Source: Candidatus Woesearchaeota archaeon (lineage in GTDB: Archaea; Nanobdellota; Nanobdellia; Pacearchaeales; GW2011-AR1). From it: a stretch of 64,000 nucleotides of DNA. Position 1 is the stretch's first letter. Each line of letters opens with the position of its first letter. Positions 6,012 through 54,077 of this stretch are shown here, in pieces. A program made the position numbers and the translations under genes. A model generated the notes under the pieces. It did not search any database. It was not told the origin of the DNA and saw nothing but the letters and a program-made list of their open reading frames with translations. The stretch is from positions 16,129-80,128 of the forward strand of contig CAZSGW010000002.1 in the NCBI GenBank assembly GCA_964606775.1, read 5' to 3'.

Positions 6012-6425
6012 TCACGCAACAACAAAATCTTTGTTAAAAAAAGTCCCAATAATTTTTTTCATTTCCTTTAATCGTCTTTTCTCTCTTCCAATAAGAGTTG
6101 CTTTATTTGTTCTTGTTGCATCAACAACGATGGAATCACCATCAACTTTTAATTCATTAATTGTGGCCCCCGAAATTTTTTCAATAAACGGCTTCGCATC
6201 TTTGATTGTTTTAGGCTCACCAATTATTTTAACTCTCTTATTTAAAATGCTTCTAATCTTATTCAAGTTTTTCAAATCTTCTCCAAGAGCTTTATTGACC
6301 AACCTTTTTGGAACGGCAAAAAAAATCGTATTATTATATTCAAAACAATATTTTGTATTTACCCTCGTAATCTTTGAGAATAAATTGAGCTGCCTCAATG
6401 TTCTCATATCTATGGTACTTATCAT
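6012..6425 (-). CDS. nusA: archaeal NusA-like (KH domains only) transcription termination factor
   Basis: 137 aa KH-type protein between rpoA and rps12 as in archaeal operons. Confidence 0.75.
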   Translation of the reverse strand: MISTIDMRTLRQLNLFSKITRVNTKYCFEYNNTIFFAVPKRLVNKALGEDLKNLNKIRSILNKRVKIIGEPKTIKDAKPFIEKISGATINELKVDGDSIVVDATRTNKATLIGREKRRLKEMKKIIGTFFNKDFVVA

Positions 6426-28267: not shown

Positions 28268-29104
28268 TTATAAATTATCTAAAGGGCTTCGAGTGTTGAT
28301 TAAATTCGGCGAAGCAATATGAGTATAAATTAAAGTTGTCTCAGGAGATTTGTGCCCGAGCATTGCCTGAACATTCTGAACATCATAACCATTTTCAACT
28401 AAATGAGTAGCAAAACTATGTCTTAATGTATGCGGATGAACGTTCTTTTTTATTCCTGCTTTTTTAGTCGCGTTTAAAACAATTTTCTGCAAACTTCTTA
28501 TATTGTACTTTGTCCCACGATTACTTTGAAACAAATAATCTTTATCTTCCAAATTTTCGATTTCAATCAAATTCTTTATTTTTTCTCTAACAATTTTTGG
28601 TAATGTGATTAACCTATCTTTTCCGCCCTTTCCATTTCGCACATATCCATAATTTTTATCCAGTTCCAAATCTTTGATTTTGACATTAGTTAACTCCGAC
28701 ACTCTTAATCCCGAACCATACAAAAATTCAATCATCAATCTGTGTTTCCAATTTGAAATGGCATTTAATAATTTTCTAACTTCTTCTTTAGACAAAACTT
28801 CAGGTAATTTTTTTGGAGTTTTAGAATATTTTATATCTATCCACATTCTTTTTTCTAAAACATTTTCAAAAAGGAATCTAATTGCCATATGGCAAGTATT
28901 CATTGTACTTCCAGCTAAATTTTTCTCAGACAAATATTCAAGAAACAAACGAACATCCTTTTTCGAAATATATCTTAAATCTTTTTTTGACCAATTCAAA
29001 AACGAATGAATGCAATGCAAATAAGTTTTAGCTGTTTTTGGAGATAATCTTCTCCTTTTACACTCTTTAATTATTTTAGAATCAATGTCTACAAAAGTCT
29101 TCAT
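28268..29104 (-). CDS. tyrosine recombinase/integrase (XerC/D/A-like)
   Basis: catalytic motifs R...HPHTLRHSFATHLVENGYD...LGHKSPETTLIYTH with terminal Tyr. Confidence 0.9.
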   Translation of the reverse strand: MKTFVDIDSKIIKECKRRRLSPKTAKTYLHCIHSFLNWSKKDLRYISKKDVRLFLEYLSEKNLAGSTMNTCHMAIRFLFENVLEKRMWIDIKYSKTPKKLPEVLSKEEVRKLLNAISNWKHRLMIEFLYGSGLRVSELTNVKIKDLELDKNYGYVRNGKGGKDRLITLPKIVREKIKNLIEIENLEDKDYLFQSNRGTKYNIRSLQKIVLNATKKAGIKKNVHPHTLRHSFATHLVENGYDVQNVQAMLGHKSPETTLIYTHIASPNLINTRSPLDNL

Positions 29105-29242
29105 AGTTATTATTTAAAATATATGTTTAAATATATATTTTGAAACTCTAGAATAAAAACAAAAAAGTTTGAGGCTGAACCAAAATTTACTTCTTTTAAC
29201 CAACTTAAATGCTCAAATTTAAAGGAGTTCGTTAAAAGTCTG

Positions 29243-29482
29243 TTATATTCAATTTTCCTTAACAGGAAAACTTTGCTCAAACATTTTTATAGTTAACTCA
29301 CAACTTTATGGAAGTCGCTCAGATTGACTTCGCTCCATTCTCAAAAAGGAATATAACACTGATTATATTCAATTTTCCTTAACAGGAAAACTTTGCTCAA
29401 ACATTTTTATAGTTAACTCACAACTTTATGGAAGTCGCTCAGATTGACTTCGCTCCATTCTCAAAAAGGAATATAACACTGA
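29243..29482. repeat. perfect tandem duplication, 2 x 120 bp, plus degenerate start of a third copy
   Basis: 29243-29362 identical to 29363-29482; unit contains palindrome GAAGTCgctcagattGACTTC. Confidence 0.95.
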
Positions 29483-29598
29483 TTAGTTTCAATTGCAAAT
29501 TCTCTAAATTGTTGAGTTTGAAAATAGGAGAGGACACTTTAAAACCCCGACCACCCACCCCTGTTAGGAGATGTGTGCTTGGTTTTATCTTCGATAAA

Positions 29599-29627
29599 AC
29601 AGATAGTCAAAACTTTCAGTTTTGAGA
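29599..29627. promoter_or_regulatory. 29-nt motif ACAGATAGTCAAAACTTTCAGTTTTGA with 8-bp palindrome arms (copy 1)
   Basis: identical copy at 34960-34988; each upstream of a + strand membrane/secreted-protein gene. Confidence 0.5.
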
Positions 29628-29800
29628 TTTAATTGAAATAATCTTCCCCCAAAAATTGAAAAAACTTCTTTTATCGGACCAGAAAAATCTCTCGAAATTT
29701 CTTCAAAATTTCGCCTAACAAACGATAAAAGGTTCGCTCTGCTCTCCCAAATTTTTTCAAAAATGAAAAGCTTTTTATATTATGCTTTTTAATATATATT

Positions 29801-31240
29801 ATGAAAAGATTAATGGTGTTAATGAGTGTAGTATTAATTTTTAGTATGGTTAGTTTGGTTTCTGCAGATACTTGTACAGATACAGATGGATTAAATTTAT
29901 ATTCAAAAGGGATGATTTCAGGATACGAAGATGAAAATTATGGAGAGTTTGAAGATAGATGTACTATTAATCCTGGTTCAGATTATACTGTTCTTCAAGA
30001 AGGCTATTGTAAAGAAGATGGAAGTTCTGCAATTTTAACAATTACTTGTTCTAGTGAATGTGTTGAGGGAACATGTGTTGGAGAACAACAAAGTGTACCT
30101 AGTTGTTCTGATTCTGATGGAGGATTAGATTTTTATGAAAAAGGTTCTATATCTGGACCAAAATTTACAGGCAAAGAAGAGGATATTGTGAGTTCAAAAA
30201 CTTATGAGGATAGTTGCACAACTAAAGGAGATATGAATCAATTAGAATATTATTGTGATAGTGGGTTAATTGTTTCAGTAAGTCATTGGTGTCCGCAAGG
30301 GTGTAGTGATGGAGCTTGTTTGCCTGAACCTGTTTGTTATGATTCAGATGGTTTAGACTATTATAATAAAGGGTATACTCAAAAAGATGATGACCCTAAA
30401 ACTTATGATGGATGTAAATCACCACATGACGGGACTCTTTATGAAAGATTTTGTAGGGATGACGGCATTCCGTATATTGAAGATTTTTATTGTGAGTTTG
30501 GTTGTAAGGATGGAGCTTGTTTAGAAGAACCTAGTGAAGAAAATGAAACCTGTGTGGAAACAGATAAAGGTAAGGATAGATATTTGAAGGGTAGAACTTA
30601 TATTGGAAAAGATACTCATACTGATTCTTGTTATCAAGATTCTTTAGTTGAGTATTATTGTTCTTTTGATTTAGAAACTCAAAAAGATTTTATTAAAAAA
30701 GATACTCTTGAGTGTACTCAAGGATGTGAGGATGGAGCATGCGTCCAATTAGAATGTTCTGAAACAGATAATGGGAAAGATGGTTTTGTTAAAGGAACAA
30801 CATGGATTGGAGAAGACACTCACACAGACGCTTGTTATAATAACAATGTTGTTGAGTACTATTGTTCTTTTGATTCTGAATTAGATAAACCTTTTATTAA
30901 AAAAGATGAGATAATTTGTGAAGCGGGATGTGAAGATGGGGCTTGTTTAAATAAAACAATAATAAAACCAGATTTAGATGAAGGTCCAGAAGAAATAAAT
31001 GACTTTAACAAATATTTTTGTTATGGGTGTTTAGTGGAGAAGTCATGTTATCCATTAGGATATAGAAAAGGTGGAGATTATTGTTCTGATGAAAATAATG
31101 AATTTATAGTTCAATTAGAAGCAGAATCTTCTTGCGAAAATAATTTTGAATGTGATAGTAATCTTTGTATAAATGATGAGTGTGTAAGTGGAAGCTTATG
31201 GGCTAAATTTATAAGATGGTTAAGTAAGATTTTTGGTTAA
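29801..31240 (+). CDS. secreted Cys-rich protein with five tandem ~70-aa repeats
   Basis: N-terminal signal/TM, repeats each ending GC(E/S/K)DGAC(L/V); C-terminal WAKFIRWLSKIFG motif. Confidence 0.7.
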   Translation: MKRLMVLMSVVLIFSMVSLVSADTCTDTDGLNLYSKGMISGYEDENYGEFEDRCTINPGSDYTVLQEGYCKEDGSSAILTITCSSECVEGTCVGEQQSVPSCSDSDGGLDFYEKGSISGPKFTGKEEDIVSSKTYEDSCTTKGDMNQLEYYCDSGLIVSVSHWCPQGCSDGACLPEPVCYDSDGLDYYNKGYTQKDDDPKTYDGCKSPHDGTLYERFCRDDGIPYIEDFYCEFGCKDGACLEEPSEENETCVETDKGKDRYLKGRTYIGKDTHTDSCYQDSLVEYYCSFDLETQKDFIKKDTLECTQGCEDGACVQLECSETDNGKDGFVKGTTWIGEDTHTDACYNNNVVEYYCSFDSELDKPFIKKDEIICEAGCEDGACLNKTIIKPDLDEGPEEINDFNKYFCYGCLVEKSCYPLGYRKGGDYCSDENNEFIVQLEAESSCENNFECDSNLCINDECVSGSLWAKFIRWLSKIFG

Positions 31241-31269
31241 AAAATTTTCCACCCCCAAGATTATTTCTT

Positions 31270-31290
31270 CTTCTTTTTAGAAAAAAGAAG
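31270..31290 (+). terminator. A/T palindromic hairpin with T-tract just after stop codon
   Basis: CTTCTTTTT-AG-AAAAAGAAG; same kind of element after stops at 33436-33454, 33475-33495, 36433-36451. Confidence 0.4.
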
Positions 31291-31750
31291 CAAAAAGACG
31301 CACACATCTCTTATTTAATGGGTTTTACAGACGGAACCCACCGTCCTAAAGTGTCCTCTCTAATTATATGACGAGAATTTGCAACTTTGATTTTTTGCCT
31401 TCGGCATCGTTGCACTAAAAATCAATCCTCACTTTGTTCGGAGAAACTAACAAGAATTCCCAGCGTCGATAAATCGACCAAATTTAAAATTTCATTTTTT
31501 GCCCACCCGACATAGGAGAAAAAAGCCTGCGTCCTTCGGGCAGATAGCTGAAACAAGTTTCAGAGAAAAACTTCTTTTACCCGACCGACGAGAAAACAAA
31601 CAAAATGCTTCGCACTTTGTATAACAAAGGGTAAAAGGTTTCACTCCGTTACACCCAAATTTTTCATTTAACTTGAGGGGTTCTTAGTCCTTCGGACAAA
31701 TTGTCGGCTCACGCCGAAATGATTAAAAGGTTTAAATTTTTTATTTTCTT

Positions 31751-32491
31751 ATGAATGAAAAAACTTCCCAAGAAGAATTGTTTAATTATATTCTTAACTT
31801 AACTCCAATAATTGAAATTGAAGAAGTAAAAAAAGATTTAACAACTTCAATGAAGAGAAGAGAATATATTAAAATAAATGGAAATAAAATTAATTTTTAT
31901 AATCTTAAAGCTCATTTAGATACAATACAAAGAAGAAAATATCTTAATAATTTCTGCCTTTATGAAATATCAAAAGATTGTGATAACAAAGATAATATAA
32001 CTAAAAAAGAAGTAGAATTTTTAGACAAAGAAAAAAATAATTATCTTCCAAACTTTCTTATTCAATGCGAATATTTTTTATTCTCAACAAAAACTATTTT
32101 TGATACAATTCTAAAAATGATAAATTACATTTTTCCAGAGGAATCTCAACCAACATCTTTTAGGAGAATGGAAAATTGGACAGATGAAATAAAAATTAAA
32201 TCTCTGATTTCTAGTAATTGGGATTGGTTTACTAAATTCAATGAATTAAGAAATAGCTTGACTCATGATGCTATTGCTGGAATAACAACACAAATAAAAA
32301 GCAAACCTCAAGAAGGAATAATTAATTATTCGAAGAGAAACCTAAAGATTTGGAATGAAAAAAGACAGGAGGAGGATATACTACAATTGCCCAATTATTT
32401 TGAAGAATGTTTTTCAAAAACTAAACAATTCATAAATAATTTTTATGAACTTTTACTAAAACAGAAAATAGAAGGAAATTCTATTTCTTGA
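31751..32491 (+). CDS. hypothetical protein (possible HEPN-like Rx4H motif)
   Basis: 246 aa; ELRNSLTHD motif. Confidence 0.45.
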   Translation: MNEKTSQEELFNYILNLTPIIEIEEVKKDLTTSMKRREYIKINGNKINFYNLKAHLDTIQRRKYLNNFCLYEISKDCDNKDNITKKEVEFLDKEKNNYLPNFLIQCEYFLFSTKTIFDTILKMINYIFPEESQPTSFRRMENWTDEIKIKSLISSNWDWFTKFNELRNSLTHDAIAGITTQIKSKPQEGIINYSKRNLKIWNEKRQEEDILQLPNYFEECFSKTKQFINNFYELLLKQKIEGNSIS

Positions 32492-32753
32492 TTAATTCTT
32501 TTGCGACCTTTTCACCTTCTTTTGTCCTCTTGTAAATCCTTCCCGTTCTATCTTCAGGATTTACAACTTCAACAAGTTTTTTATCTCTCAATTCAGATAA
32601 AGCACGAGAAACAAGATTAAAATAAGTGTTGCTGTTACTTTTGTAAATTTTCATAACTAATTCCGAAGGCATCATAGGTTTATCCAAATTCATAAAAACT
32701 TCTTTTCTATTTTTGCCTCTCTTTACAAAACCTATGGCTTTTAGCAATTCCAT
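32481..32753 (-). CDS. small winged-helix transcriptional regulator
   Basis: 90 aa wHTH-like. Confidence 0.5.
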   Translation of the reverse strand: MELLKAIGFVKRGKNRKEVFMNLDKPMMPSELVMKIYKSNSNTYFNLVSRALSELRDKKLVEVVNPEDRTGRIYKRTKEGEKVAKELIKK

Positions 32754-32846
32754 AGCAATCTATATACAAAGAAATTTAAGAAGCAAATTCAACAATCTAT
32801 TAGCAAAAGGAAAAGGTTTATAAAATAGTTTTCTCTATATTTTATT

Positions 32847-33425
32847 ATGGATAAAAAAGTGACTATTGGAATTGTTGTGGCAGTTATAGTTATCGTTGCA
32901 GGATATTTTATTTTCTTTAATCAATCATCTTCTACAATTTTACCTTCTAAACCTCAAACTTATAGCGGAGATGTTTCTAGTTTAGTTTTTAGTCTAGAAG
33001 AATTACCTGAAGGATACAAAATTGCCGAAAGAACTCCAAGAACAAAATCAGATGTTTCCGAAGAAGGTTTAAGTTGGGGATGGAGCGAAGGTTATTACAT
33101 AAGATATCTTAAAGGTGGAGAAGAAAGTTTATTTGATGTAAGCCGTATTGAGTTATATGTTTCAAGATATCCTTTAGAAAATGTAAGTAAGGGTATTGAA
33201 AATGGGGCTCCAGAATATGAAGGTTATACTATGGAAGAATTGCCAAATCCAAATATTGGCGAAATGTCTTTGGCGACAAGATACACAGATGATGATTTAG
33301 GTTTAAGAGAATATCAAATTGAATTTTATGATAAAGATATTTATATTACTCTTATGAATGGTGGTTCAGCAACAGATTATGAATTGTTAAAAGAACTCGC
33401 TAAAAAAATTGAAGGTAAGATTTAA
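32847..33425 (+). CDS. N-terminally membrane-anchored extracytoplasmic protein
   Basis: single N-terminal TM helix then soluble domain. Confidence 0.5.
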   Translation: MDKKVTIGIVVAVIVIVAGYFIFFNQSSSTILPSKPQTYSGDVSSLVFSLEELPEGYKIAERTPRTKSDVSEEGLSWGWSEGYYIRYLKGGEESLFDVSRIELYVSRYPLENVSKGIENGAPEYEGYTMEELPNPNIGEMSLATRYTDDDLGLREYQIEFYDKDIYITLMNGGSATDYELLKELAKKIEGKI

Positions 33426-33645
33426 TTCTGAAAACTTCTTTTAGAAAAAGAAGGCAAAATAAGAACCCCTCATTTTCTTTTTTAGAAAAAAAGAAACAAA
33501 AAAGGGCAGGCTTTTTTCTCTAATTATTTGGTCGTCGGAAACAACCATCCTCCTCCCCCACCCTAAAATGAAATTTTAAACTCACGAGGAAACTTTTTGT
33601 TTCAGCTCGTGCCCTTCGGGTCTGGGAACAGCAGATTAATTGCAA

Positions 33646-33820
33646 TTCTAAAACCTGCCTTTCTCGACGAGAAAGTAACCATAAATCCTAAAAGTTGTCG
33701 CCTTCGTTAAACGGACAAACGAGGAGAAAAAAAGAAATGCTTCGCACTTTCTTATAACAATCGTTTAACGGTTCGCTTCGCTCTCCCAAATTTTTTCTTG
33801 ATTGAAAGTTGGGGGGCTAA
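33646..33820. repeat. left arm of long imperfect inverted repeat
   Basis: TTCTAAAACCTGCC...AGTTGTCGCC...TTTTTTCTTGATTGAAAGTTGGGGGGCTAA matches rc of 34724-34830. Confidence 0.8.
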
Positions 33821-33822
33821 AA

Positions 33823-34059
33823 CTATTTTTTCCCAGACAGCCAAGAATTAATATGTTCTCTAACTTTTTTATTTGTGGCATAAAGAAAAATTCCTCCCAA
33901 TCCCACAATTACAGAACCAACATACGCAGGAACATCACCAATCAAAGATTTAATCACAAGAAAAACAACAACAATCATTATTGCTGCGACAATGATCAAT
34001 TTTCCTAAATCCAAAATGTCTTCTGTTAATTGTCTTGTTTCTCTGCTCATGTTAACCAA
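33823..34059 (-). CDS. small two-TM membrane protein
   Basis: 78 aa, hydrophobic core. Confidence 0.5.
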   Translation of the reverse strand: MVNMSRETRQLTEDILDLGKLIIVAAIMIVVVFLVIKSLIGDVPAYVGSVIVGLGGIFLYATNKKVREHINSWLSGKK

Positions 34060-34681
34060 ATACCTTTTTTAAGAATCCTTTTTTCTTAGGGGTAATTTTA
34101 GGCATACCATTCTCTTCCATTATCTTAATAACTGCTTCTGCCTGTGCTTTTGCCTCTTCTCCAATAAAGAGTTTTCCCAATTCGTTTATTTTTTCTTCAT
34201 ACCATTTACGTAAAGAAACGCCAAAAGCTTTCTTAGATAAATTTGGATTTTCAATTTCCATCTTTATTAATTTTTTTAATTCAACATCAATAAAAAATAC
34301 TTCTGCATAAACTATGTTAATCCTGTCTTTTTTATCTTCTCCTTTGTATGGAGTCCAAGAAATTGAAACTCTTTCGGGCAATTCATCCATTCTTCCAGCA
34401 TAAATCACATCTCTTAATATTGAAATTGCAAACCCATCAATTAAATCTCTTTTGTCCCTTAATTCTTCAGGACTACATTTCTTTCCTTTTGGGATTACTT
34501 TTATTTCAAACATCCTACTTCCTTCTTCGTTAATATGTCCTTTTTTATCTACATCTACATCCCAACCTAATTCCTCTGAATAATGGGATAATTCTTTTTT
34601 AGCATTAACAATCCCACTAGAAGTAGCACTAATTGTAAAATAGGTTTCAATCCATTTATAATTCTCTAAATCTTCTGCCAT
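34052..34681 (-). CDS. hypothetical protein
   Basis: 209-aa ORF overlapping downstream small membrane-protein gene. Confidence 0.5.
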   Translation of the reverse strand: MAEDLENYKWIETYFTISATSSGIVNAKKELSHYSEELGWDVDVDKKGHINEEGSRMFEIKVIPKGKKCSPEELRDKRDLIDGFAISILRDVIYAGRMDELPERVSISWTPYKGEDKKDRINIVYAEVFFIDVELKKLIKMEIENPNLSKKAFGVSLRKWYEEKINELGKLFIGEEAKAQAEAVIKIMEENGMPKITPKKKGFLKKVFG

Positions 34682-34723
34682 ATTATATAGATTAGAGAGA
34701 ACATATTTATAAAATTATCTATC

Positions 34724-34830
34724 TTAGCCCCCCAACTTTGTCTTTCAGACATTTAGTCTGCCTACGGCAGAGATATATAAAATCAAGAAAAAACTACGGC
34801 GACAACTGGATTTACGGCAGGTTTTAGAAC
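34724..34830. repeat. right arm of inverted repeat (shorter, deleted version of left arm)
   Basis: TTAGCCCCCCAACTT...GGCGACAACT...GGCAGGTTTTAGAA. Confidence 0.8.
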
Positions 34831-34959
34831 TTCTTCGGAAAACTTCGTTTTCCTCGACCACGCTGCGCTCTCGCCTTCGGCTCGGGGCAATTAACAGCGA
34901 TTATATTCAATCGTCGTGTAGATTTATTAAAAGGGGATTGCCGCCTTAGTCCCTTTGGG

Positions 34960-34988
34960 ACAGATAGTCAAAACTTTCAGTTTTGAAG
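34960..34988. promoter_or_regulatory. 29-nt palindromic motif copy 2
   Basis: identical to 29599-29627. Confidence 0.5.
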
Positions 34989-35035
34989 ATTTATTTACAA
35001 AGATTTTTATATCTCCATTTATATTTATATTCATA

Positions 35036-35515
35036 ATGGCAAGACATTATGATGACGGATATGAAATGTATGTTCCAGGAAAAAAGAAACATCATTCACA
35101 TCACTATTCCTCAAGAGGACATTTGAACTTTAAAAATTTCCTTAGAAGATATGTTTATTTTAGAATTCAAAATGATGTTGAACCCCATCTAAAACAATTT
35201 GGCATAATATTTATTATTGGACTTGTTTTGAATTATGTATATTATCAAACTCTTTCATTAAGATACCTCTTTATTGGAGGAGTAAATGAATGGTTTAATG
35301 TTCTAATGCCAACATTAAATTATGGTTTTGGGACAGGTTATAATTTATTTTATCTGATTATTAACGGAATTTTTTATGCCTATTTTTATTATAGTTTTAT
35401 ATTAGTTATTTACAATACGATAACTAATTTAGATGATAGAGATACATGGGTTATGATTGGATGGTTTGCATTAATAATATGGATAATAACAAAGATATTT
35501 CCGCAAATAATATAA
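35036..35515 (+). CDS. membrane protein, His-rich N-terminus (start placed at internal ATG)
   Basis: TATA-like ATTTATATTTATAT ~20 nt upstream of ATG 35036; ORF-track start 34955 would read through the conserved palindromic motif. Confidence 0.45.
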   Translation: MARHYDDGYEMYVPGKKKHHSHHYSSRGHLNFKNFLRRYVYFRIQNDVEPHLKQFGIIFIIGLVLNYVYYQTLSLRYLFIGGVNEWFNVLMPTLNYGFGTGYNLFYLIINGIFYAYFYYSFILVIYNTITNLDDRDTWVMIGWFALIIWIITKIFPQII

Positions 35516-35541
35516 ACAAATATTAACAATCAATTATAAAG

Positions 35542-36414
35542 ATGAAAGATAAAATCCTAAATCAAACAAAACATTTCTGTAAAAAGAAATGGAATCAGTT
35601 TACTTTTTGGTTTACAAAAAAAGAGCATCCAAGAAGTATATTAAATAAAAATGTGTTCTTTCATGATTTACTAAAAATTATCGGTTTAATTTTAGTATTC
35701 TTGATTGTTTATTCAAATGTTGATAAGCTAAATCAAATTGTTTTGATATTTATAAAAATAGGTTCACTATTACAACTCGTATTGCTTTTCTTTATTTTAA
35801 GAAAAGCATGGCATTTGACAATTAACTTGAAATACTTTTTTCGTGGACTAAACCATGGAACAAAAGCTATAATTGCTATCGCTTTGGTTTTATTACTCTT
35901 TATGGCTTTTCAAAATCAAGAAAAAGTAGTTGATTCGGTAGTTGAATCTTACGAAAAAGCAGAATTTCAAAAATTTAATCCTATTAATGCCAATCTAAAT
36001 TTATCTTCATTAAATCTTAAAGGAATAACAAAGCAACTTAACACTTGTCCACAAATTGATGTTCCTATTAATTTTCCTAAATATGGAGACCCTAATATCA
36101 AAAGTCAAACCTATGATGGATGGAAAGTTAAAGGAAGTGCAACTTGTAGAAAGGGAACAAAAGAAGGAGAAAATCTAAATAGATATTATTGTGGTGGATA
36201 TGAAAGTTTTATGGGAATAGGAAGTGTTAATGCTTATGTTGAAAAAACAACAATTTCTGATGACGGAGATATCGGAAAAACTTACAAATATGTTATATGG
36301 AATATTTATGATGAAGATAAAAACTTTGTAGAAACAAGATGTATCGGAGATCCTGACGAGTTTGATAAAAAACAAGCTGAAGCATTTTATAATGAAATGC
36401 TAAAATGGAGCTAA
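35542..36414 (+). CDS. membrane-anchored protein with Cys-containing extracytoplasmic domain
   Basis: N-terminal TM helices, C-terminal soluble domain. Confidence 0.5.
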   Translation: MKDKILNQTKHFCKKKWNQFTFWFTKKEHPRSILNKNVFFHDLLKIIGLILVFLIVYSNVDKLNQIVLIFIKIGSLLQLVLLFFILRKAWHLTINLKYFFRGLNHGTKAIIAIALVLLLFMAFQNQEKVVDSVVESYEKAEFQKFNPINANLNLSSLNLKGITKQLNTCPQIDVPINFPKYGDPNIKSQTYDGWKVKGSATCRKGTKEGENLNRYYCGGYESFMGIGSVNAYVEKTTISDDGDIGKTYKYVIWNIYDEDKNFVETRCIGDPDEFDKKQAEAFYNEMLKWS

Positions 36415-36633
36415 AAATCTAATTCTAATTTTCTTTTTTAAAAAAAAGAAACAAAAAAGGCGGCGGCAATCCCCAGAAAAAAAACTATACACACGACGAC
36501 TTTGAGTTTTCCCTTCGGGACGTTGCACTAAAACTCAATCCCTAACGGGAGAATATAACAAGGATTACATTCAATTTCTTCACTCCATTTAACAGCACAA
36601 AAGCAATAAAAACCCTCGACTCTTCACTCTTAA

Positions 36634-37437
36634 ATGGAAAAAGAAGTGAAACCAAATATAAAACAAGAACAAATTCACGACATTCTTTTCAATCGTGAAA
36701 TAGGTTGGCAAGAAATAATCTATGATTTAATCAACACTGAACAACTTGATCCTTGGGACGTAAATATTTCAATACTCGCCGAAAAGTATTTGGAAAAAAT
36801 AAAGGAACTTGAAGAGGCAGATTTCTTCGTATCTTCAAAAGTACTCCTCGCAGCTTCACTTTTACTAAGAATTAAATCCGAAATACTTCTAAACAAATAT
36901 ATCAAATCAATAGACGAAATACTTTTCGGAAAAGAAGAAAAAAAGAAATACGAAATGGAAAGGATAGAACTAGATGAACAAATACCCGAGCTAATACCAC
37001 GAAGCCCAATGCCCAGATTCAAAAAAGTTACTTTAAAAGAATTGATGGAGTCCCTAAATAAAGCAATATCAACAGAAAATAGAAGGATAAAAAAAGAAAT
37101 AATCAAGAAAAACGCATTAAGGGAATCCTCAATCTCTCTTCCAAAGAAAAATACAAGCATAAAAGACAAAATAAAAATAATCTACGAGAAAATAACAGGA
37201 CATTTTCTAAATAGCAAGACCCACAAAAAAGTACCTTATTCTCATTTGACTGGAGAAAAAAGAGAAGAAAGGATACACTCTTTCGGACCTTTACTACAAT
37301 TAGAAAACCAAAAGAAACTCTGGTTACATCAAGAAAATCACTTCGAAGAAATCCACATCTGGGAAAGAAAATCTTTTTGGAAACACAAAGGAGACCCTTT
37401 TGCAGATTTGCGTGAAGAGGAAGTTAAAAAAGAATAA
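36634..37437 (+). CDS. ScpA-like kleisin (segregation and condensation protein A), tentative
   Basis: N-terminal ...EQLDPWDVNISILAEKYLEKIKEL resembles ScpA N-terminal motif; 267 aa. Confidence 0.45.
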   Translation: MEKEVKPNIKQEQIHDILFNREIGWQEIIYDLINTEQLDPWDVNISILAEKYLEKIKELEEADFFVSSKVLLAASLLLRIKSEILLNKYIKSIDEILFGKEEKKKYEMERIELDEQIPELIPRSPMPRFKKVTLKELMESLNKAISTENRRIKKEIIKKNALRESSISLPKKNTSIKDKIKIIYEKITGHFLNSKTHKKVPYSHLTGEKREERIHSFGPLLQLENQKKLWLHQENHFEEIHIWERKSFWKHKGDPFADLREEEVKKE

Positions 37438-52898: not shown

Positions 52899-54077
52899 GT
52901 GATGATGGCAAAGAAAAAATCTTCCAAAAGAAAATCTAGTAAAAAGACCCCCCATAAAAAAAGTTCAAGTAATTCTAAGTCAGTTAACAAAGCAGACTTT
53001 GAAACATTTAAATTTGGAGTTGAGCGATTAAAGGAATTAAAAAAGGAACTAAATTCTTTAGATACAAAAGGATTCTCTTTGGAAGAGGAGTCAATAAAAT
53101 CGAAATTAAAAGATGTAACTCAAATACCTACGATTGAGAAAGAATTAAAACTACTTAAACAAAAAATAAAAAACAAACCAAAAAAATCTTCCAAAAAAAA
53201 GTCTAGCAAAAAATCTTCACATAAGAAAACTTCTAAAAAATTCACGTCTCACAAAAAATCAAAAAAGATTACAAAAGCGGACAAAGAAAAAGCACCAACT
53301 CTAAAATTAAAAACTGATGAAGATATAGCAAGAGATTTTGCAGTTAAGATTTCTCAGAAATTCAATAAAATCGTTAAATCAATAGTATTATTTGGTTCAA
53401 CAATTAAAAAAGACAAGGTTTCAGGTTCAGATATTGATGTAATGATATTGATTGATGATGCTTCAATAAAATGGGACCAAGAGTTAATTGCATGGTATAG
53501 AGAAGAACTTGAAAAAATACTAAGAGCAAACCCTTACAATAAGGAACTTCACGTTAACACCGTTAAACTAAGTACTTGGTGGGAAGATTTAATGAGGGGA
53601 GACCCTGTTGTAATCAACGTTTTAAGATATGGGGAAGCAATGGTTGATTTAGCAGGTTTCTTTAATCCATTAAAACATTTATTAATACAAGGAAAAATAA
53701 AAGCAACCCCCGAAGCAATTCATAGTTGTTTGCAAAGAGCTCCATTACATTTAACCAGAAGTAAAGCGGCGGAACTTGGAGCCGTAGAAGGTTTATACTG
53801 GTCAATGGTAGATTCAGCTCATGCAGCACTTATAGCAGCAAACGTGCTACCTCCTTCTCCAGAGCATATTTCTGAAGAATTAAAGAAAACTTTTGTTAGC
53901 AGAGGAAAACTCAATTCAAAATATCCAAAATGGTTTGGAGAATTGTTAGAGCTTCATAAAAAAATAGAACACAGGGAAATTTCTGACCTCAAAGGAGTTG
54001 AGATAGATGATTGGCAGAAAAAAACTGAAGACTTCATGATGGTCATGACAAAACTAGTAGATGAAATGGTTAGTTAA
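52899..54077 (+). CDS. Pol-beta superfamily nucleotidyltransferase with K/S-rich N-terminal region and helical C-terminal domain
   Basis: LFGSTIKKDKVSGSDIDVMILIDD NTase motif; paralogous to 56192-57973 product. Confidence 0.6.
   Translation: MMMAKKKSSKRKSSKKTPHKKSSSNSKSVNKADFETFKFGVERLKELKKELNSLDTKGFSLEEESIKSKLKDVTQIPTIEKELKLLKQKIKNKPKKSSKKKSSKKSSHKKTSKKFTSHKKSKKITKADKEKAPTLKLKTDEDIARDFAVKISQKFNKIVKSIVLFGSTIKKDKVSGSDIDVMILIDDASIKWDQELIAWYREELEKILRANPYNKELHVNTVKLSTWWEDLMRGDPVVINVLRYGEAMVDLAGFFNPLKHLLIQGKIKATPEAIHSCLQRAPLHLTRSKAAELGAVEGLYWSMVDSAHAALIAANVLPPSPEHISEELKKTFVSRGKLNSKYPKWFGELLELHKKIEHREISDLKGVEIDDWQKKTEDFMMVMTKLVDEMVS

Follow-up and report, generated by a model that had tools for sequence, protein, structure and literature searches.

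The nested hairpin that occurs twice in the window (the whole stretch of DNA analysed, 64,000 nucleotides of a Candidatus Woesearchaeota genome, contig C2:16129-80128) belongs to a family of folded modules which run directly into short recombination sites, in co-oriented arrays that lie next to the gene of a Xer-like tyrosine recombinase. On balance, we favour the idea that these parts make up a widespread and so far unreported gene-capture platform of DPANN archaea (Pacearchaeales and Woesearchaeales), consisting of a XerA-derived paralogue, a recombinase-proximal site, and cassettes bounded by 8-6-8 sites (8-nt arms around a 6-nt spacer) with folded modules. The hairpin would then be the commonest folded module of that platform, which is part of the same joint reading.

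The two copies, B and E, lie in the 7.4-kb stretch between the recombinase gene and scpA (36634), and their coordinates are collected in Table 1. In both, an outer stem (P1) encloses a short hairpin with a UUC triloop (P2) and the invariant unpaired stretch CGTTGCACT; a further hairpin (P3) and the conserved tail GAAAYTAAC form the 3′ part. The initial annotation had placed and quoted the two copies correctly, and the covariance model described below matches both. The compensatory changes it had pointed out are also real: a U-A pair becomes G-C in P1, whose arms are TTGATTTT/AAAATCAA in B and TTGAGTTT/AAACTCAA in E, and a G-C pair becomes C-G in P2, which reads (T)GCC-TTC-GGC(A) in B and (T)CCC-TTC-GGG(A) in E. 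All four substitutions between the 45-nt cores of B and E sit in these two compensated pairs; copy B has two additional T 5′ of P2. Two points had to be amended. The single strand is invariant over CGTTGCACT, but the base before it is T in B and A in E, and the hairpins are present as described, but the unit reaches further 3′, through P3 and the tail. Copy E is the final site of the array, with scpA beyond it. B and E are the only canonical copies in this genome (563 kb in nine contigs, 32% G+C), and a divergent one is found on contig C9.

Table 1. Coordinates of the recombinase gene, the sites, the modules and the cargo genes (numbering of the window unless a contig or locus is named)
Feature	Position	Strand	Description and basis
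Xer-like tyrosine recombinase, 278 aa	28268-29104	minus	Pfam Phage_integrase and SAM-like N domain
Recombinase-proximal attI-like site	29231-29262	+	GTTCGTTAAAAGTCTG, then TTATATTC AAT
Two perfect 120-nt tandem units, no ORF	29243-29482	+	100% identity, repeat search
Core site S1, without hairpin module	29349-29373	+	GAATATAA-CACTGA-TTATATTC-AAT, regex scan
Core site S2, without hairpin module	29469-29493	+	GAATATAA-CACTGA-TTAGTTTC-AAT
Cargo ORF	29801-31240	+	no Pfam/NCBIfam match
Module copy B	31381-31464	+	82.7 bits, E about 1e-18, covariance model from related copies
Copy B, P1	31387-31395 with 31417-31425		
Copy B, P2	31396-31399 with 31403-31406		triloop TTC
Copy B, unpaired junction	31407-31416		TCGTTGCACT
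Copy B, P3	31426-31428 with 31440-31442		TCC..GGA
Copy B, left arm	31443-31450		GAAACTAA
Copy B, spacer	31451-31456		CAAGAA
Cargo ORF	31751-32491	+	no Pfam/NCBIfam match; 78% nt identity to G119:C83
Cargo ORF	32847-33425	+	no Pfam/NCBIfam match
Cargo ORF	34052-34681	-	no Pfam/NCBIfam match
Core site D	34887-34911	+	GCAATTAA-CAGCGA-TTATATTC-AAT; core-less hairpin variant before it
Cargo ORF	34955-35515	+	no Pfam/NCBIfam match
Cargo ORF	35542-36414	+	no Pfam/NCBIfam match
A+T palindrome	36425-36467	+	TTTTCTTTTTTAAAAAAAAGAAAC and GGCGGCGGC, repeat search; opens the noncoding block after the upstream gene
Module copy E	36496-36572 (to 36575 with AAT)	+	84.3 bits, E about 1e-18, covariance model from related copies
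Copy E, P1	36502-36509 with 36530-36538		
Copy E, P2	36510-36513 with 36517-36520		
Copy E, unpaired junction	36521-36529		CGTTGCACT
Copy E, P3	36539-36542 with 36547-36550		TCCC-TAAC-GGGA
Copy E, left arm of core site	36551-36558	+	GAATATAA
Copy E, spacer	36559-36564	+	CAAGGA
Copy E, right arm	36565-36572	+	TTACATTC
Copy E, AAT	36573-36575	+	
Divergent module copy	contig C9, L002:197-289	minus	27.9 bits
5′-half-only copies	L066:18338-18421, L095, L122, L019, L022, L153, L073, L070, L181, L183, L062:6248, L023		

The covariance model, built on 19 copies, was used to scan this genome and its relatives. It matches 57 of the 151 genomes and 43 of the 84 genera of the order, with one to six copies each. 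A DNA search of 41 related genomes returns the 75-nt unit from many genera; the identity is 84-100%, and a genome often has two or three of them. In total, 146 non-redundant copies were gathered from Pacearchaeota and Woesearchaeota genomes. An exact 20-mer occurs in at least 119 stretches from species representatives, nearly all of them titled Pacearchaeota, Woesearchaeota or Nanoarchaeota; its occurrence in the chromosome of the flavobacterium Aequorivita nionensis was discarded as a chance match, in coding-like sequence which the model does not match. Some contigs that carry the module (L092, L113, L115, L132) are filed under Bacteroidales, Patescibacteria, Thioploca and Peregrinibacteria MAGs and "Methanosarcinales", which are probably binning errors or loose labels.

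In 57 distinct aligned copies from other genomes, 92.2% of the cells are paired, compared to 75.2% after shuffling, in an alignment fitted to the model, which inflates the figures somewhat. In that same alignment, P1 is 93.5% paired, double changes are seen in 16 of the 17 pairs and 152 cells are compensated; none of 500 shuffles matches the observed values of pairing and covariation, and controls in which the partners were slid are at most 60% paired. RNAalifold, run on a plain MAFFT alignment, returns P1 and P3 with covariation. Across the family, P1 has 9 bp, P2 has 4-5 bp and a nearly invariant UUC triloop, the unpaired junction reads CGUUGCACU, and P3 has 4 bp and variable loops, before the tail GAAAYUAAC. 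P1 exists in at least seven mutually compensated versions, for example UUGAUUUU/AAAAUCAA, CUAAAAUUU/AAAUUUUAG, UUUACAUUU/AAAUGUAA and CUCGAGAUU/AAUCUCG. The idea that selection acts on the folded structure of the module, first proposed from two copies, is therefore strongly supported by sequence comparison, with covariation in three helices and more than 140 copies: compensatory change in the three helices, together with an invariant unpaired 9-mer, indicates purifying selection. The covariation of the module is strong and clear-cut, and its single-stranded CGTTGCACT is invariant across families.

Two additional pairings were considered and rejected. A pseudoknot between the bases just 5′ of P1 (GCGAC-like) and GUUGC would have only 2-6 bp and is not kept across copies, and the pairing of GUUG with UAAC of the tail is broken in GAAC variants. 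The pentamer UUGCA recurs in unpaired spots: the core has it as G-UUGCA-CU, the following hairpin has it in its loop as C-UUGCA-G, and an alternative end has it as AG-UUGCA-AU.

The 3′ end of the module runs directly into the left arm of a core site, the conserved tail being this left arm. Core sites have an 8-6-8 form: GAAAYTAA, the 6-nt spacer CAGSRA and TTARTTTC, with AAT after it. Of 23 distinct short-form sites, 20 have a 6-nt spacer. A regex scan of 28-37.5 kb returns four short-form sites on the + strand (S1, S2, D and that of copy E), and none on the minus strand. In long-form sites, a 76-156-nt hairpin is located inside the spacer: AACA and 10-12 nt pair with a distal arm that ends in GA-TGTT, which gives a helix of 10-12 bp with a GA bulge and AAC...GTT flanks, and the sequences of its arms covary. 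The complementarity of the outer R″/R′ of long-form sites is weak, 2.4 of 4 for own pairs vs 1.9 for cross-pairs. A permissive genome-wide scan for AAC-hairpin-GTT gives 435 matches, most of them due to chance in an A+T-rich genome. The left and right arms are not co-inherited (5.26 for own vs 5.13 for cross-pairs), which fits the idea that they come from different cassettes. In copy B, the spacer is joined to a block that starts with CCCAGCG, and the same block also follows a long-form ...GATGTT end of the same genome, at C2:60-70. A 3′ module shared by three blocks, AUAACAAnnGnUAAAAGG-UUCnCU...CCCAAAUUUUUU (29696-29768, 31600-31675 and 33735-33807), looks like a left arm and a long-form hairpin reduced to its first half, with no distal arm.

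The hairpin module is not required for a core site, since S1, S2 and D and the sites of the L257 family (see below) do without it; before D, there is a core-less variant that the model matches weakly (34839-34908, 15.9 bits). The left flank of the site can be dressed in several alternative ways, and the module is one of these. The attI-like site, proximal to the recombinase, has a left part (AGTTCG...CTGTTA) in common with G145 (L065:2826-2845), followed by the right arm and AAT. In many metagenome loci, there is a site 134-154 nt from the start of the recombinase gene.

The recombinase gene of the window is transcribed away from the cassette array. Its product scores 228.5 with the NCBIfam model XerA_Arch (cutoff 220) and 212 with the integron integrase model TIGR02249, which is under the cutoff of 265. 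The best PDB match is IntI4 (2A3V): residues 17-200 align to residues 15-201 of IntI4, and 201-277 to 243-319, so that residues 202-242 of IntI4, the 41-residue IntI-specific domain near patch III, have no counterpart. In a tree of 41 Xer homologues, the housekeeping or single-copy XerA proteins are all in one clade (SH-aLRT 97), and the array-adjacent recombinases (16 of 16) are outside this clade, in several long-branched lineages. The genomes have kept a housekeeping XerA elsewhere (in this one, at G000 C7:26932-27729). At least two Xer genes are present in about 30 of 57 module-positive genomes vs 12 of 94 module-negative ones, a tally in which related genomes are not independent. The module is within 8 kb of a Xer-like gene in about 18 genomes, always in the same divergent arrangement; as many MAG contigs break at the element, only about half of the genomes were open to this scoring.

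In the array of the window, the noncoding blocks are unusually long (200-700 nt) and made of shared modules. The cassette formed by the two genes at 34955-36414 is also present in G098:C13, together with the block and the module that trail it; the ORFs have 77% nt identity, and synteny stops just past the site (...CAAT). Each 120-nt tandem unit extends from the right arm (TTATATTC...) to the left arm and spacer (...GAATATAA CACTGA), and the boundary between the units (29362/29363) is the spacer/right-arm junction; the tandem, which adjoins the recombinase gene, looks like a duplicated ORF-less mini-cassette rather than an assembly artefact. The A+T palindrome that opens a noncoding block is also found at 31262-31300 and 33469-33511 (33436-33511 in a wider delimitation), at L003:8120-8160 and in many relatives. 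The palindrome (TTCTTTTTTAGAAAAAAAGAA) recurs directly after stop codons and may be a bidirectional oligo-T terminator; the relative G019 has at least 15 copies on different contigs. More pieces of arrays of this kind are seen at contig ends of the same genome (C2:1-340, C2:1915-2290, the whole of the 3.3-kb C9, and C4:63100-63228), so that the assembly breaks in the repeats, and cassettes in addition to those of the window are probably present in the genome. The first cargo ORF (479 aa) has a signal-like N terminus, internal repeats of about 204 nt that carry a Cys-rich GCxDGACL-like motif.

The same organization is found in other genomes. Copies cluster at a spacing of 1-5 kb, and about 26 clusters are co-oriented while one is not. 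In 51 metagenome loci that were fetched with the recombinase protein alone, all 12 model matches lie 5′ of the gene of this protein, on the strand opposite to it, and the core motif is found 44 times in the predicted sector; the counts in the three control sectors, which are just as large, are 5, 4 and 10. Noncoding blocks that are 93-96% identical in five genomes start at the upstream stop codon and end with ...GATGTT, and their flanking genes differ. The cargo ORFs are in both orientations within arrays; they include a type I restriction-modification system, a nucleotidyltransferase, a methyltransferase and a thioredoxin-like gene, and most match no known family.

It is highly improbable, in our opinion, that the module is a selfish MITE-like miniature repeat, or the decaying debris of a mobile element, with no function for the host or the array. 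Such a repeat would be multi-copy, as the module is, and would break assemblies at contig ends; the identity of 84-100% across genera and the mosaics that the module forms with other modules are also what is expected. However, there are just one to six copies per genome, the 80-nt unit is surrounded neither by terminal inverted repeats nor by target duplications, and its three helices change in a compensated manner around a 9-mer that is invariant across families. The fixed position against the core site and the fixed orientation with respect to the recombinase also argue against this explanation.

Another explanation, which we regard as possible but rather doubtful, is that the module is a small structured RNA of the cassette-boundary block (regulatory or insulating, involved in termination or processing, or sequestering a protein by displaying UUGCA), which rides with the cassettes and takes no part in strand exchange. 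Many functional RNAs likewise combine covarying helices, three in this case, with a strictly conserved unpaired stretch, and the recurrence of UUGCA in unpaired contexts would be in line with this. The blocks open after the A+T palindrome, which could hold a TATA-like box, and many end with CCCAAAUUUUUU, a possible oligo-U terminator. In the long hairpin downstream, G·U mismatches outnumber A·C mismatches (19 vs 9), which leans to the + strand. On the contrary, G·U and A·C are equally frequent in the module itself (16/16 in P1, 4/4 in P2 and 11/13 in P3, 31 vs 33 in total, which are small numbers; single mismatches 8 vs 6), which means that the signature of an RNA strand is missing from P1-P3. 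No clear promoter-like signal was found at a fixed distance upstream of the module, and the register of the P2 stem, with its UUC triloop, excludes the stable C(UUCG)G tetraloop. The search of Rfam 15 at the gathering threshold returned only tRNAs, and nothing credible was found in 29100-36700 at E up to 5. The RNA folds of B and E taken alone, as single sequences, are not significant (z -0.5 and -1.75). None of the sequencing runs listed is of RNA; the best-matching DNA run is probably the source sample, and other metagenomes contain 5-18% of the words.

The neighbouring genes bear on the same question. The module is always intergenic, and the nearest ORFs are co-oriented with it in 67 vs 47 cases upstream and 58 vs 52 downstream, all four gene arrangements being observed. 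This absence of a tie to the orientation of neighbouring genes shows that the module is not their leader or trailer (UTR); it is what one would expect of an autonomous RNA gene, but the strict co-orientation within arrays and with respect to the recombinase is not expected of independent RNA genes. The genes that adjoin the module are highly diverse, and the recombinase is the sole recurrent one.

A view of the site at work comes from two contigs of sister samples, L257 and L258, which are 99.9% identical except that L257 has 1971 additional nt about 0.9 kb from the recombinase start. The empty site of L258 reads GAACAC TTAG TTTCAAT. In L257, the proximal junction is GAACAC TTAG/CCAAAA... and the distal one is ...CCTAACATAA TTAG/TTTCAAT (with a longer flank, ...GAGCCTAACATAA TTAG/TTTCAAT). 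The insert therefore sits exactly where the spacer of the proximal site meets the right arm, with 4 nt in common, and it has its own left arm at the far end. The insertion site is homologous to the attI-like site of the window (29231-29262), and every cassette further along the L257 array ends in the palindromic GAGCCTAA-CATAA-TTAGGCTC. In this lineage, the recombinase is only about 57% identical to that of the window, and the sites have no canonical P1-P3 module. We infer that the crossover takes place about 15-25 nt downstream of the hairpin, at the spacer/right-arm boundary of the 8-6-8 site.

The initial annotation had suggested an RNA or an attC-like recombination site. The link to recombination has held, in view of the co-oriented arrays beside a tyrosine recombinase and of the insertion at the site that abuts the module, but the hairpin is not attC-like. 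We consider it unlikely that the recombination site is the nested hairpin as such, folded as an attC-like single strand and cleaved within or next to CGTTGCACT. Some hints in this direction come from incomplete and chimeric copies: at least 12 independent part-copies keep the 5′ arm of P1, P2 and CGTTGCACT and diverge within about 10 nt, just after CACTAAA..AATCA, and in the chimeric copy L024, a 5′ half from E meets, inside the invariant core, the 3′ half of a copy that resembles L013. No reciprocal copies with only the 3′ half were found. Moreover, the loops of the minus strand (GAA, GUUA and GAUA) are G...A loops, which are stable in DNA hairpins, and the minus strand of copy E folds with z -3.4 when DNA parameters are used. 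However, crossovers between the two arms of P1 would shuffle them, and the arms stay matched. The insertion, the boundary of the tandem units and the ends of conserved blocks are all downstream, at the spacer/right-arm junction. The conserved single strand lies between the two arms of P1, and an R″-L″...L′-R′ order is absent from the hairpin. Last, in integrons it is the extra domain of IntI that reads the extrahelical bases of the folded attC, and the recombinase here is devoid of this domain.

We therefore return to the platform reading, in which we place moderate confidence, and according to which the module is an accessory folded arm on the cassette-side flank of the recombination sites of a Xer-derived, integron-like system. 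The recombinase would bind both arms of the core site and exchange strands at the boundaries of the spacer; it would excise cassettes and insert them at the recombinase-proximal attI-like site, in the manner of integrons. Since it has no IntI extra domain, recombination would probably take place on ordinary duplex core sites. As an accessory arm, the module could display CGTTGCACT in its junction to the recombinase or to a host factor, and it may label the side on which the cassette lies or give the reaction its direction, much like the accessory sequences of cer and psi. It may fold as DNA, in a single strand or in a cruciform, or as RNA; both a binding partner and an effect on recombination are presumed.

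Like what we propose here, classical integrons consist of a tyrosine recombinase divergent from co-oriented sites that separate variable cargo. Their cassette ORFs are mostly promoterless and co-oriented, and are expressed from Pc. The attC sites, 57-141 nt long, have the organization R″(RYYYAAC)-L″...L′-R′(GTTRRRY) and fold with extrahelical bases. Further resemblances are the recombinase-proximal site, in which the new 1971-nt cassette of L257 is inserted, the cassette-end sites, which are alike within a lineage (GCCTAAC/TTAGGC of L257 resemble the R″/R′ consensus), and the AAC...GTT of the long-form sites around a long hairpin with a small bulge. Unlike integron integrases, the recombinase here does not have the IntI-specific domain and is below the integron-integrase cutoff; the majority of the sites have the look of duplex 8-6-8 sites and not of folded attC; the cargo is in both directions, and some genes seem to have their own promoter-like A+T boxes; the noncoding blocks are modular and 200-500 nt long; and nothing in attC corresponds to the P1-P3 module and its CGTTGCACT. 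The archaeal integrons described by Ghaly et al. 2022 (PMC9668308) have an IntI with the extra domain and canonical attC sites; the same study lists CALINs without IntI in the Pacearchaeales family GW2011-AR1.

The resemblance to Xer/dif systems, in which one housekeeping Xer and a single dif resolve chromosome dimers, lies in the XerA-like recombinase and in the inverted arms around a 6-nt spacer. The dif site has 11-6-11 arms and spacer (PMC8371274), and in Sulfolobales dif is close to xerA (PMC2958812). Here, on the contrary, the recombinase is a paralogue distinct from the housekeeping XerA, there are many co-oriented sites per array instead of one dif, and the arms have 8 nt instead of 11. 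Cargo modules bounded by Xer-type sites are also reminiscent of IMEX and of the pdif modules of Acinetobacter plasmids. The latter are flanked by inverted sites. The cer and psi sites also have a long conserved noncoding stretch on one side only of the core site; such a stretch could impose directionality or encode a small RNA. Their accessory sequences are protein-binding duplex DNA, and the Rcd RNA is encoded inside the cer site. Unlike these, the accessory part here is a covarying hairpin module; to our knowledge, no partner of the PepA, ArgR or ArcA type is known for it. Our search of the literature returned no description of the recombinase paralogue, of the 8-6-8 sites or of the module.

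The genomes of DPANN archaea are tiny, and these organisms are dependent on hosts; the way they gain and shuffle accessory genes is poorly understood. If our interpretation is correct, a dedicated Xer-like recombinase with cassette arrays would be a concrete mechanism for gene gain in these organisms, and it would supply the recombinase that is missing from the attC clusters without integrase which were reported there. The platform would also be a second, independent path from Xer to an integron-like system, which bears on the origin of integrons from Xer-type enzymes, and a source of compact new recombinase/site pairs.

Other loci deserve mention. In G084 (C1:36540-37367), the array-linked recombinase is a pseudogene with many in-frame stops, and a canonical module remains about 600 nt away. 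G140 (L229) has a recombinase that is 68% identical to that of the window and no canonical module; core-less variants (L229:5109-5165 and 6123-6212) are found beside this recombinase, with the same ACU...hairpins...UAACAGnnAUUA syntax. Last, in the window itself, 52914-53288 consists of lysine- and serine-rich low-complexity direct repeats within a coding region.
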